From: a virus | Lineage: Duplodnaviria > Heunggongvirae > Uroviricota > Caudoviricetes | Virus record (IMG/VR): IMGVR_UViG_2574180227_000016 | Reading direction: 5' to 3' (one strand) | Length of the DNA: 21,365 nt | Shown: positions 900-13,545 of the stretch, piece by piece | Position numbering within the stretch: position 1 is the stretch's first letter | Layout of the letters: every line of letters begins with the position of its first letter | Translations under genes and position numbers: made by a program | The notes under the pieces: model-generated | Told to the model about the DNA's origin: nothing | Database searches by the model: none | The model's input: only the letters and a program-made list of their open reading frames with translations

Positions 900-936
900 A
901 CAAAATCAATATAAACAGCCCCTCCGGAGAGGGGCT
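900..936 (-). terminator. candidate stem-loop terminator (AGCCCCTC-CGGA-GAGGGGCT)
   Basis: Perfect 8-bp stem with 4-nt loop at 917-936. On the - strand it is followed by a moderately T-rich tract (GTTTATATTGATTTTG). Confidence 0.3.
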
Positions 937-1176
937 GGAGAGTGGCGCTATGTGCCATTGCATGGTGCCGGGTGCCTCCCGGTGAGTTCAGTATCAGCAC
1001 CTGAACCCGCACAGAAAGGATAAGGGTCGGTGACAAAACACCAGTTGCTGATTGCCCCTCCGCACAGGGGGATTCACCATGCCAGTTTCTTTTAACAAAC
1101 TCCCCGCAAACCAGACAACAGTCAACCGCCTGAATTGTGAGGCATTTAAAAATTTCAACGGGTAACTGATACCCTG

Positions 1177-1337: not shown

Positions 1338-1769
1338 TCACAGATGATTCTCCAGACGAAGGCCCAGGACACCGGCAATCTCTTCCAGCACCTTGCGCTC
1401 TTCCGGCTCTATTTCGCCGTCTGCTTCGGCAATGGCCACCGCCACATCCAGCACGTCTTCCGCTTCACGCGTATCGTGTTTCACATCCTCGATCTCACGT
1501 AACGCCGCTCGACGACCAATTTTAAAGTTCGTATCCAGCTGACCGATAATGGTTGCGCTAATCGCATTAATTTCTGACGTAAACGCGGACAACGCAGGCT
1601 GGTTACGCAAGACCTGCTCGATCTTCGCTTTCTCTGAAGCCTCACATTCACCATCTGCATAGGCCACCAGATAGGCAGCATTAATAACCGCCTGTGCCAG
1701 ATCACGTTTCTCAAACTTTTTAATTTCCACTGCCGCTCGGCGGGCTTTTTTACCAAAAATACCAAACAT
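1338..1769 (-). CDS. TerB-like (tellurite-resistance TerB fold) protein
   Basis: Start set at the internal ATG (MFGIFGKK...) preceded by AAGGAA. Two copies of the TerB-type A-x-A-D-G-E motif (LVAYADGECEASEK and AIAEADGEIEPEER). Confidence 0.6.
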   Translation of the reverse strand: MFGIFGKKARRAAVEIKKFEKRDLAQAVINAAYLVAYADGECEASEKAKIEQVLRNQPALSAFTSEINAISATIIGQLDTNFKIGRRAALREIEDVKHDTREAEDVLDVAVAIAEADGEIEPEERKVLEEIAGVLGLRLENHL

Positions 1770-1937
1770 CGTGACGTTCCTTTGGGTGGGTGAGCCAACG
1801 CCCGGGAGCGATCTGCCCACAGAGAAAGTCACACTGACCACTCCGTAAGCTCACCCCCGAAAGGCTCTGTGGTTGATATGCGCCGGGCGTGGCGCAGATA
1901 CAAAAAAAGCCCGCCGAAGCGAGCCTGATAATAAATC

Positions 1938-2012
1938 TGGAGCGGGTAGCGGGAATCGAACCACGATAAGAAGGTTAACAGCCTTCCGTAATGACCTTTA
2001 TACGACTGACCC
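1938..2012 (-). pseudogene. degenerate tRNA-like sequence (tRNA-Gly-like scaffold, GUU in the anticodon loop, unpaired acceptor and T stems)
   Basis: Reverse complement reads GGGTCAGTCGTATAAAGGTCATTACGGAAGGCTGTTAACCTTCTTATCGTGGTTCGATTCCCGCTACCCGCTCCA. It has U8, a D arm, an anticodon stem GAAGG/CCTTC with loop CUGUUAA, a TTCGATT T-loop and 3' CCA, but the acceptor and T stems do not pair. Confidence 0.35.
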
Positions 2013-2058
2013 AAATAAAAAAAGCCACCGTTGCAACTTAAGAGTCACTAACGGCAGC
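2013..2058 (-). terminator. rho-independent terminator just downstream of Q (tR'-like candidate)
   Basis: In - strand sense: GCTGCCGTT-(17-nt loop)-AACGGTGGC followed by TTTTTTTATTT. The 9-bp stem includes two G-U pairs. It lies 18 nt after the Q stop. Confidence 0.5.
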
Positions 2059-2075
2059 TTACCCTCTAATTATGG

Positions 2076-2594
2076 CTAAATGGCTAATTGCATGTCAAGG
2101 CTTTTAACAGCAACATGCTTAACTTTCTCAACACGTTTACGCATTTTGAAAGCATTTTGCATTGGTTGGTACAAAACAAATAATGACGCTTTCAGGATAT
2201 CGTCAATTTCGTTTCTACAGGTTGCCAGTGAAGGTTTTCTCCATCCCTCGCCACCGCGTCCACACATCTTGCGTGGCTTTGCAGTCGCGTGATAGTAGGA
2301 TGCAATTGCTCTCTTAGATGAACCATGAGCGTAGTAGCTGAGGAGGATGCCAAAGGCTTTCTTGTCAATGTACATGACGGAATCGACGACCTGAGAAATC
2401 AACATTCCATCATCATCATTACACATTGGTCTTGTCATAACTCTTCCCGGCTCTACGCTCTCCATGAACTTCGCTATTACGCTGCTCATGCGCTTTTCCA
2501 GACGACCTGAATAAACCCATGCGCCCCACAGTTCAAGCCAGCCATTCAGCCAATCGTGCTGTTCTTTGGTGAGGTTTAGTTCTCTTATGCCCAT
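2076..2594 (-). CDS. Q: late-gene antiterminator Q (Q82/QuuD-type family)
   Basis: 172 aa with a WLELWGAWV...RPMCNDDDGMLI...YYAHG pattern resembling QuuD-type antiterminators. AAGGGAGAAG RBS. Positioned at the end of the nin region before the late genes. Confidence 0.7.
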   Translation of the reverse strand: MGIRELNLTKEQHDWLNGWLELWGAWVYSGRLEKRMSSVIAKFMESVEPGRVMTRPMCNDDDGMLISQVVDSVMYIDKKAFGILLSYYAHGSSKRAIASYYHATAKPRKMCGRGGEGWRKPSLATCRNEIDDILKASLFVLYQPMQNAFKMRKRVEKVKHVAVKSLDMQLAI

Positions 2595-2637: not shown

Positions 2638-3243
2638 TCATGCGGCCTCACTTCTGCTGTTTCGCAGGTCTTTGAGTTTCTGTTGGTACTCTGCCTTGAT
2701 GGCCCTGCACTCTTCGACAGTCCAGCGATGGCGGTTATGGTTTGATTCGATTTCATCTACTGCTTCCTGCCCGATGCGGCTAATCAGTTCGACGCGATAC
2801 GGAACGAGATTTCCGCTTTTGTGCTGGTTGCACACCACGCATTGCTTGTGAATATTGCGTTCATCAAATCGGAGTTGAGGTGCCGCAGCAGTTGTCCGGT
2901 AATGTCCGGCATCCCACTGAGCAGACGTGAGCGTTCCGCACGAGATACATGGTAAGTCGCGGTCTCTTTCTCTGATGAAGGCGTTTACGGCTTGTTGGGC
3001 TTGTTTAATCCAGTAACTGCGGGGCTTTAAGGCGAGTTTTCGAATCTTCAGTTTATCTTTCTGTTTCTGCTCCTCTCGTCGTCGTTTCTTCTCTGCTGCT
3101 TTTTCCGCTTTTTCGCGTTCTTTACTTCGTCGTTCGAGTGCTAATTGAGTTCCGTGTTCCGGGCAGCACCACCACTGATTTGAGAATGCCGGGTGAAACC
3201 ATTCTTTGCATATTTTGCATTTCCTTCGCGCTGGTTTAGCCAT
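2638..3243 (-). CDS. ninG: NinG (Rap) recombination protein
   Basis: 201 aa, [26 protein letters not shown]...[19 protein letters not shown], close to lambda NinG. Start overlaps the upstream stop (TAATG). Confidence 0.85.
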
Positions 3244-3971
3244 TAAGCAGCCTCCCCTGTTACTTTCAGCATTCCGTTATCGAGCAGCTTTCTGGTCAGC
3301 CACTGTTGACCACGCCCGGTGATTTTTGTGGTGAACGATATCTGTATTCCGTGATTTGTGTTGACCGCTGTTTCTTTCACTGTGAAATAGCCGCGCTCCA
3401 TATATTCCTGCATTGGCACATTGCGCCGGGCACCTGAAGTAATAAGGATTTTGTGATCGCGCATCCACGCAAACAGTTTGTTTGGACCAATTCCAACAAC
3501 CTTTGCATAGTTTCCAATCAAAATTCCGCTGGCCTCGCCAACGCGATCGGCAAACTCAACTTTAGGTGCTGCGAGAGCAAGCTGTTTCTCCAGTTCAGCC
3601 TTCTGGTCTTCAAGGTCGGCCGCAAGGCGCAATGCCTCAGAAAAGGTTTGTGGTATTTTCGCGGTTGCCCCTTCGAGTTCTCGCCAACGGTCAACAAGAC
3701 GAGCGGTGAATTCCGGCGACAACTGAGCGACGACAATAATGCTGTCTCGCTTACCTTGTTCGCCTTCGAATATATACACGCTTGTGAATTTGTTAGGGCT
3801 AATTGTTTGTTTATTTTCAACTTTTTGCATTGGAGGAAGTTGAATCACCCCACGCTTTGCCAGACGTTCTATTGATATTCTGACATTACCGTGTTGGCTT
3901 CCCACCAACTCAGCGATTTCAATGCTTGTCATTTTGATGACGTTGCTATTTATCAGCTCATTCATTGTCAT
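3243..3971 (-). CDS. phage antirepressor-like protein (Rha-type N-terminal domain, KilA-C-type C-terminal domain)
   Basis: 242 aa with GAGAGG RBS. Domain assignment is from recalled family patterns, not a search. Confidence 0.5.
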
Positions 3972-4039: not shown

Positions 4040-4723
4040 TCAGTAGCGATGCAGTGAAGGCGGCAACTCTTTGTTCTTAAGCCTTTCCCATGCCAGAAGG
4101 TTCGTCGGCCCGTCAGGCTCATAAATATCTATATCCCGCGTGTGATTAATTAAAACGCCCCTCGCCCTCCCGATGGTATACGAGAACTCATAGCCGTAGT
4201 CGTGGCATATGCCGGAATAGCCAGACTGAATCAGTTTTAATGCGGGATACAACTCACGGAACAATGCCTGTGAGCGGTTGGCATAATCCCACAGCCATAC
4301 AAGGCTGTCTGTTTCTTTTGCGGAAAGCCCGTTGGGCTTCTTCTCTTGTTTGCCAGTATTTTTCTCGCACTGGCTGAAATAGCAGTCTTCCAGTTTTTCG
4401 AACACTTCCCACGCCCGATCGGTTTCGAGCATTTTTGCATGACGGGCTGCGCCGCGTTCTGTCCATAGGATGAGGGAGCGAACGTTACGGGCAATTTTCA
4501 CAGAGTAGTTAAAAGCTACTCTGTGCTTGAACTCACGTAAAGTTTCACCTTCAAGTTTGAAGAAGTGTTTTTCCTCAATGAAACGACCTTTGTTTTCGTG
4601 GTGATTCTGGCGAATACGAATAGCTTCTGTGCCGTAAAGGTGCGCCAAAAGTTCGGTAGTGATAACGGGGATCTGCTTGTAAGTAATCGTGGAGAGTGTT
4701 TCAACAGAAACTTGAGTTGTCAT
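4040..4723 (-). CDS. nin-region DNA-binding/antirepressor-like protein (ORF6N/Roi-like)
   Basis: 227 aa. N-terminus [33 protein letters not shown] resembles ORF6N-type antirepressor domains. Preceded by a 277-bp structured intergenic region. Confidence 0.45.
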
Positions 4724-4884
4724 AATGACGCCCTCGAGTGGTTTCTAAACTATCACCACCGTCAGGTTCCTAATCATCGGGTGGCGAGACGTACAGGGTT
4801 AGGAACTACCGGGAAACCAACCGGCGAGCTTTTCAGCTCCCCTATACGCCCCACCATAATTCAGATGTGCGTGTGCATACGACA

Positions 4885-4909
4885 ATAAAAAACACGCTCG
4901 CGGCGTGTC
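4885..4909 (-). terminator. rho-independent terminator inside the nin region (tR2-like candidate)
   Basis: In - strand sense: ACACGC-CGCGA-GCGTGT followed by TTTTTTATTG. Confidence 0.45.
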
Positions 4910-5000
4910 TCTGTCGCGGTTTCTATCCGGGGTTCCTAATCCCGACGCCAGATTTTGCTGGCGCGTGAGGAATATAGCCCCGAATAAATCATCACGTCAA

Positions 5001-13377: not shown

Positions 13378-13404
13378 TATGTGTAAATAAATAAGGAGCA
13401 CACC

Positions 13405-13545
13405 ATGCAATATGCCATTGCAGGGTGGCCTGTTGCTGGCTGCCCTTCCGAATCTTTACTTGAACGAATCACCCGTAAATTACGTGACGGATGGAAACGC
13501 CTTATCGACATACTTAATCAGCCAGGAGTTCCCAAAAATGGATAA
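13405..13545 (+). CDS. cIII: CIII (FtsH/HflB inhibitor)
   Basis: Manual translation [46 protein letters not shown] (46 aa) matches lambda CIII over its length; AAGGAG RBS. Under the ORF-track cut-off. Confidence 0.8.
   Translation: MQYAIAGWPVAGCPSESLLERITRKLRDGWKRLIDILNQPGVPKNG

Follow-up and report, generated by a model that had tools for sequence, protein, structure and literature searches.

The 21,365-nt stretch of Caudoviricetes DNA analysed here (IMG/VR record IMGVR_UViG_2574180227_000016; "the window" below) is a lambdoid/P22-like prophage read backwards. On its minus strand, shortly after the antiterminator gene Q, it carries a 75-nt tRNA-like sequence (2012..1938; GGGTCAGTCGTATAAAGGTCATTACGGAAGGCTGTTAACCTTCTTATCGTGGTTCGATTCCCGCTACCCGCTCCA). 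What is this sequence, and how did it come to lie there? An earlier note had listed its tRNA hallmarks, had seen a tRNA-Gly-like 3' end, and had offered two origins, a decayed phage tRNA or the relic of a tRNA-targeted recombination event. The hallmarks are indeed all present on the reverse strand: read from the sequence, the element has U8, a D arm with a 3-bp stem, an anticodon arm with a perfect 5-bp stem and the loop CUGUUAA (anticodon GUU), a TTCGATT T-loop and a CCA terminus. Comparison with related prophages leads us to conclude, with high confidence, that the element is a hybrid tRNA pseudogene, in which a single 159-bp deletion fused the 5' part of a phage tRNA-Asn to the 3' part of a tRNA-Gly.

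The late-leader setting

The surroundings of the element are those of the start of a late operon, with the following features:

2076..2594 (-), late-gene antiterminator Q, 172 aa, of the phage-21 / Sf6 gene 59 type (open reading frame)
2069..2098 (-), late promoter pR' (TTGACA, 18-nt spacer, CATAAT), overlapping the 3' end of Q
2017..2059 (-), late-leader terminator tR', read from the sequence, with a hairpin at 2059..2024 and a 7-T run at 2023..2017
1902..1926 (-), second intrinsic terminator, from a terminator scan, with an 8-bp stem and UUCG loop (1926..1907) and a T-run at 1908..1902
1338..1771 (-), TerB-family gene, the first gene of the late region past the array (annotated so in the identical RefSeq locus; tciA in JLK-2012)

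The assignments draw on annotated relatives. A 100%-identical RefSeq locus in E. coli SCU-104 labels the Q gene 'antiterminator Q family protein', and the record of the homologue in Sf6 annotates similarity to phage 21 Q. The promoter agrees with 11 of the 12 consensus positions in a promoter scan. Around the promoter and terminator, the window is about 98% identical to Sf6, whose record places on the homologous stretch a phage-21-like late promoter pR', a qut site and the terminator tR'; the sequence homologous to pR' is described there as 'nearly identical to phage 21 late promoter' and that homologous to tR' as 'putative late mRNA leader terminator; t R''. The two strands of the tR' stem, AGCUGCCGUU / AACGGUGGCU, occupy 2059..2050 and 2032..2023, the final pair using the first T of the run, and tR' is invariant in our alignment (A1). 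In the second terminator, the T-run begins within the last two stem positions; this terminator is conserved 3' of the tRNA-Gly in phage JLK-2012 and in DEC5B, and it closes the tRNA array in the relatives. Beyond it, the TerB-family gene is accompanied by a DUF3927 gene, the pair being tciA and tciB in JLK-2012.

The element lies between the two terminators, its 5' end lying at 2012 and its CCA ending at 1938. It had been described as beginning right at the T-run of the terminator; the two are adjacent, but do not quite abut, as the four nucleotides ATTT (2016..2013) separate the T-run of tR' from the element.

Several other RNA elements were seen in the window. A full-length match to the STnc100 sRNA (907-1111, minus strand; 137.6 bits) lies in the late region, 3' of the TerB and DUF3927 genes; one or two copies occur in related loci, and in one of these (L006) a match to AsxR, an anti-stx2 sRNA, lies beside one. 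On the same strand, 4777-4977 holds IsrK (4887-4964), the C4 antisense RNA (4777-4861) and its a1/b1 target (4924-4977), just upstream of two P22AR / KilAC-type antirepressor ORFs (4723..4040 and 3971..3243), and resembles the sRNA-controlled antirepressor modules of the P1/P7 or Gifsy type, here within the nin region. The lambda cIII thermoregulator element (13392-13450, 88.5 bits) is on the plus strand, which therefore also carries the early-left operon and sets the window in inverted lambda orientation. Among the other Rfam families overlapping the region of the tRNA-like element, TarB, isrB, rsmX and the rest scored far below their thresholds and matched merely the terminator hairpin.

Parentage of the element and the missing 159 bp

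The tRNA-like sequence can be divided into three parts, each with an exact counterpart in related phages:

1963..2012 (-), Asn-derived part, nt 1-50 of phage tRNA-Asn(GUU), identical to the tRNA-Asn of JLK-2012, DEC5B and Sf6
1956..1962 (-), deletion junction, the 7-nt microhomology GGTTCGA, common to the T-arms of tRNA-Asn and tRNA-Gly
1938..1955 (-), Gly-derived part, the last 18 nt of phage tRNA-Gly(UCC), identical to the tRNA-Gly of JLK-2012 and DEC5B

Compared base by base (alignment A1), nucleotides 1-57 of the element equal the tRNA-Asn of JLK-2012, and the first 57 nt equal that of Sf6 as well, while nucleotides 51-75 equal the tRNA-Gly of JLK-2012, with no mismatches; the two identities overlap by 57 + 25 - 75 = 7 nt. 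The Asn-derived part supplies the 5' strand of the acceptor, the D arm, the anticodon arm and the 5' strand of the T stem. The shared GGTTCGA, at positions 51-57 in both 75-nt parents, comprises the last two bases of that T-stem strand and the start of the T-loop, and the Gly-derived part supplies the remaining T-loop, the 3' strands of the T stem and acceptor, U73 and the CCA. The glyT-like 3' end reported earlier is thereby confirmed and made more precise: the last 25 nt are identical to the phage tRNA-Gly(UCC) and differ by one base from the host glyT, the element carrying the phage allele A67 where glyT has G67. Over their whole length, the phage tRNA-Gly and host glyT are about 90% identical. 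What had gone unrecognised is that the 5' two-thirds of the element are a well-known phage tRNA-Asn, otherwise intact, for which Sf6, phage L and BTP1 have annotations.

The relatives also show what the window lacks. When positions 2120..1850 were searched with BLAST against complete E. coli genomes, prophages of O55:H7 strains and others matched in two pieces. The subject spanned 159 bp more than the query, and the annotation beneath the match showed tRNA-Asn, tRNA-Thr and tRNA-Gly; phage JLK-2012 shows the same two-piece match, again 159 bp longer. The array at this site in JLK-2012, DEC5B and other O55:H7 prophages consists of tRNA-Asn(GUU), tRNA-Thr(UGU) and tRNA-Gly(UCC), set between the same tR' and terminator. 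In JLK-2012 (L003), the intact genes lie at 1549-1623, 1629-1704 and 1708-1782. The offset between the starts of the Asn and Gly genes is 159 bp both there (1549 and 1708) and in DEC5B (1602 and 1761), where Asn and Gly are annotated with a Thr-like sequence in between; Sf6 has Asn and Thr. Against the intact array, the window is short of exactly 159 bp, namely the entire Thr gene together with the 3' part of Asn and the 5' part of Gly. Its flanks align collinearly with those of the intact loci and are nearly identical to them, from the tR' hairpin to past the downstream terminator (alignment A1). The fusion is in register and retains one copy of a 7-nt direct repeat whose copies were originally 159 bp apart. 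Parental halves joined in register, undeleted collinear relatives and a junction within shared sequence, the three marks of a tRNA hybrid formed by deletion, are all found here, and we found nothing that contradicts such an origin.

The middle gene of the array deserves a comment of its own. The tRNA-Thr(UGU) is weak in both JLK-2012 (L003 1629-1704) and DEC5B (L002 1682-1754): ARAGORN makes no call, the scores are 49 and 47 bits against 61.5 for the tRNA-Thr of Sf6, the T stem contains an A·C mismatch, and the DEC5B copy is left unannotated by NCBI's pipeline. The tRNA array in the undeleted relatives may already be decaying.

We propose that an ancestor of the prophage carried tandem genes for tRNA-Asn(GUU), tRNA-Thr(UGU) and tRNA-Gly(UCC) in the leader of its late operon, between the Q-controlled tR' and the second terminator. 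One 159-bp deletion between the GGTTCGA of tRNA-Asn and the same motif in tRNA-Gly, 159 bp downstream, would have removed Thr entirely, along with one third of Asn at its 3' end and two-thirds of Gly at its 5' end; being a single deletion, it would have cost the prophage all three tRNAs in one step. Short-homology deletion between direct repeats is classical in E. coli, and the likeliest route would be slipped-strand mispairing or another form of RecA-independent, short-homology illegitimate recombination, probably aided by the wider, imperfect similarity of the Asn and Gly T-arms. The remnant would now be transcribed only when Q-modified RNA polymerase passes tR' and would form part of the late mRNA leader; we read it so because of the lambda and phage 21 paradigm and the homologous sites annotated in Sf6. 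Of the earlier idea of a decayed phage tRNA, the core survives, as the element is a non-functional remnant of phage tRNAs; decay by point mutation does not, as every base matches an intact phage tRNA.

Folding, and other readings of the element

The proposed deletion left the anticodon and D arms whole and rebuilt the two remaining stems from mismatched strands. In the canonical register, four of the seven acceptor pairs and three of the five T-stem pairs are non-standard, seven broken pairs in total, because each stem joins an Asn 5' strand with a Gly 3' strand; the inability of these stems to pair had been seen correctly in the earlier note. The energy of the cloverleaf is +0.5 kcal/mol for the hybrid, compared with -19.1 for Asn and -25.4 for Gly. 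The hybrid's structure of minimum free energy (-15.8 kcal/mol) departs from the cloverleaf, and shuffled sequences fold just as well (z = 0.04), while the parents reach z-scores of -1.74 (Asn) and -4.08 (Gly). At its default settings, ARAGORN finds no tRNA gene in the 21-kb window or in the identical locus in E. coli (L004), and in the relatives it calls Asn and Gly. By contrast, the Rfam covariance model for tRNA (RF00005) matches 2012..1943 at 32.6 bits against a threshold of 29 (E = 3.9e-05 in a local search), and the similarity to tRNA is therefore real and not due to chance. The match passes only by way of a one-base deletion in each 3' strand, that of the T stem and that of the acceptor, and at about 23 bits below the parents (55.3 for Asn; 55.4 and 53.7 for Gly). 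The residual score arises because the Gly 3' strands resemble those of Asn save for two one-base gaps, which allow a shifted pseudo-cloverleaf. Neither of the outcomes that the earlier note had named as refuting it is seen: the covariance model reveals no well-paired functional tRNA, and the similarity to tRNAs is clear.

One might nevertheless take the element for an odd but working tRNA-Asn that adopts the shifted cloverleaf, has its CUCCA trailer trimmed and a CCA added, and is charged by AsnRS through G34, U35, U36 and G73. The Rfam gathering threshold is, after all, passed in just this register; ARAGORN calls a distorted tRNA-Asn(gtt) at the element once its -ps threshold is lowered; the D and anticodon arms come from an intact tRNA-Asn; and the shifted fold, which bulges C5 and U50, shortens the acceptor to 6 bp and the T stem to 4 bp and has a G as discriminator, is energetically possible at -11.3 kcal/mol. 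That fold, however, is 4.5 kcal/mol worse than the non-cloverleaf minimum, itself no better than shuffled sequence, and its coaxial acceptor-T helix, normally 12 continuous pairs, would be reduced to 10 and interrupted by two bulges. The discriminator is followed by CUCCA, so that no CCA is encoded in register, and a pairable 7-bp acceptor and 5-bp T stem followed by discriminator and CCA are not found in either register. Besides the score far below both parents, the deletion accounts for every base of the element, none of the 14 known copies bears a compensatory change, and the NCBI pipeline leaves the element unannotated in all four complete genomes that carry it. These fold predictions make it very unlikely that the hybrid works as a tRNA, or that it is processed, charged or used in translation. 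A broader version has the late-expressed hybrid mature in the shifted fold, either into something like tRNA-Asn that can be charged or into a stable tRNA-like RNA that regulates or serves as a decoy. On the same modelling it is highly improbable; were it true, the allele would persist for that role, for example as a decoy against tRNA-targeting host defences, and not through mere neutrality.

Three further readings leave translation aside. Many integrases target the segment from the T-loop to the 3' end of a tRNA and leave partial tRNA copies behind, and the Gly-derived part of our element does start in the T-loop; it could thus be a partial duplicate of the attL or attR type, with a tRNA-Gly 3' end as the attachment site. 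A remnant of this kind would border unrelated DNA, but both sides of the element are the same phage late leader, no foreign DNA adjoins it, and its only difference from the intact Asn-Thr-Gly array is the missing 159 bp. Moreover, the Gly part agrees exactly with the tRNA-Gly of the phage, including A67, where host glyT has G67, and the element, being in the leader of the late operon, is a long way from the int/att end. Nothing has been inserted here, and collinearity refutes the relic of tRNA-targeted recombination suggested earlier, a reading to which we give next to no weight. No more credible is an artefact of assembly. Short-read assemblers can collapse tandem repeats, and a shared motif does lie at the junction; the shared sequence is only 7 nt, however, far under any assembler k-mer, and the junction recurs in four independent complete genomes from the USA and China and in nine contigs from independent projects, behind three different Q modules. 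Finally, the remnant might be kept as an RNA element of the late leader, as an entry site for RNase P or RNase E or as a structure for transcript stability or antitermination. It does sit between two terminators in a Q-dependent leader, all 14 copies are identical, and how tRNAs are released here from the late mRNA is not known (PMC8022706). A recent origin explains the identity equally well, however, as the surrounding 240 nt differ at no more than two positions and no constraint is demonstrated; the thermodynamic signal is nil (z = 0.04), and related phages range from no tRNA (P22) to three, so that the leader tolerates any content. We consider such a role extremely unlikely. The preferred reading remains that of a hybrid pseudogene left by one deletion.

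Distribution, meaning and known systems

To follow the hybrid across genomes, we used a 47-nt junction probe built so that neither intact parent seeds a megablast hit. It matched four of 5426 complete E. coli genomes (SCU-104, PM4-5, LZSFT34 and EC100), and an exact 33-mer across the junction was found in six IMG/VR contigs and three gut-metagenome contigs. The hybrid is unannotated by the NCBI pipeline in the four genomes and likewise in every record that we examined. The 33-mer junction was not found among the GTDB species-representative genomes, and the GenBank phage collection holds no copy of the hybrid, its sole phage match being an intact tRNA-Asn variant in the Flyfo siphovirus Tbat2_3. 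This tRNA-Asn (L008 371-442) is one base from that of Sf6 and JLK-2012, with the T-loop TTCGATT in place of TTCGAGT, and belongs to an Asn-Phe-Thr array upstream of a holin gene, showing the same tRNA-Asn travelling with different partner tRNAs. Among the complete E. coli genomes, the Asn gene and leader are widespread, with matches in 1295, while the intact Asn-Thr-Gly array is itself uncommon (13 genomes with at least 80% coverage).

The 14 copies of the hybrid are all identical across the 75 nt, and the 13 that span the full surrounding 240 nt differ at no more than two positions. Their uniformity ends abruptly at the first base of the tR' stem. Upstream of about 2059, the copies split among three unrelated Q/pR' modules: the 519-bp Q of the window, a 489-bp Q of the JLK-2012 type, and a Q of 525 bp with an HNH endonuclease gene behind it. 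The mosaic breakpoint is sharp, at about 2059-2063 at the 5' base of the stem (loci L004-L007 and L009-L017); downstream of it everything is common to all carriers of the hybrid, and upstream lie the three unrelated Q/pR'/qut modules. In L006, the HNH endonuclease gene is inserted between Q and tR'. Just 3' of the hybrid, the TerB-family gene tciA is an annotated pseudogene with an internal stop in PM4-5 and EC100 (L005 and L007, 3714-4145), a sign that, in some carriers, the accessory region of the late leader may have decayed further.

Did the deletion happen once or repeatedly? Every base that the hybrid retains is the same in the intact JLK-2012 array, and the SNPs in the flanks are uninformative on this point. 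The array offers other short repeats, and we looked for their products in the complete E. coli genomes: a Thr/Gly hybrid, with a 10-nt microhomology, has no match, and an Asn/Thr hybrid, with one of 6 nt, matched only the same four carriers of Asn/Gly, by the shared Asn half. T-loop deletions therefore do not appear to be a frequent, recurrent process in this array. Because three Q modules share one scar and the other T-loop hybrids are not found, one deletion followed by mosaic exchange of Q modules seems, on sequence comparison, the more parsimonious history than recurrent deletion. Whatever the history, the hybrid allele is stable, of low frequency, and shuffled behind at least three Q/pR' modules.

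Overall, the element is an ordinary scar, now fully explained, and opens no new question. It matters little beyond annotation, where the label due is that of a tRNA pseudogene (Asn/Gly fusion), and it accounts for an unannotated Rfam tRNA match that would otherwise resemble a cryptic or degenerate tRNA. The category is known, tRNA pseudogenes being formed by deletion between tandem tRNA genes; the Asn/Gly fusion itself was previously unannotated in the records examined. For those working on these lambdoid prophages, the scar indicates that the tRNAs of the late leader can be dispensed with and that a single step suffices to lose the array, the universally conserved T-loop motif acting as microhomology, and the hybrid junction is an unambiguous marker of Q/pR' module exchange upstream of an otherwise identical late leader. 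Our literature searches turned up nothing relevant on bacterial hybrid or chimeric tRNA genes formed by deletion, and on tciA nothing bearing on tRNAs.

Phage tRNA genes associated with late expression are familiar from several systems. Stx phages carry the ileZ-argN-argO tRNA array upstream of stx. In some P22-like phages, the late operon opens with tRNA genes: Sf6 carries Asn and Thr, and phage L carries Asn and Leu, its tRNA-Asn matching the AAC codon bias of the capsid gene (PMC8022706; PMC2629481). The late-leader arrays of Sf6 and phage 21 (Asn-Thr), phage L (Asn-Leu) and JLK-2012 (Asn-Thr-Gly) lie, like our element, directly after pR'/qut/tR' and 3' of Q; they differ in that the array of the window has collapsed to a single hybrid that does not fold. 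The loss of late-leader tRNAs is evidently tolerated, since P22 has none.

Partial tRNA copies within prophage DNA are otherwise known from attachment sites; E. coli K-12, for example, has pseudo-copies of argU, thrW and argW. Phage L, too, has a thrW-like att segment (PMC8022706). Like these, the element holds a fragment of a tRNA 3' end from the T-loop region; att-site copies, however, come from integrase exchange at the ends of the prophage and have unrelated DNA on one side, whereas the element is internal and its flanks are collinear with the intact array.

Further precedents are deletions between repeats. In E. coli, spontaneous lacI deletions occur between direct repeats of 5-8 bp, and tandem tRNA genes undergo unequal recombination, as at tyrT-tyrV, or deletion, as within the tRNA cluster of phage T4. 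As in those cases, the endpoints of our element lie in a short direct repeat (7 nt) within a longer, imperfect similarity, and one copy of the repeat is kept. Unlike in the tandem-tRNA recombinants, the two parents differ in amino-acid identity, and the fusion is therefore, in all likelihood, dead rather than a functional recombinant tRNA.
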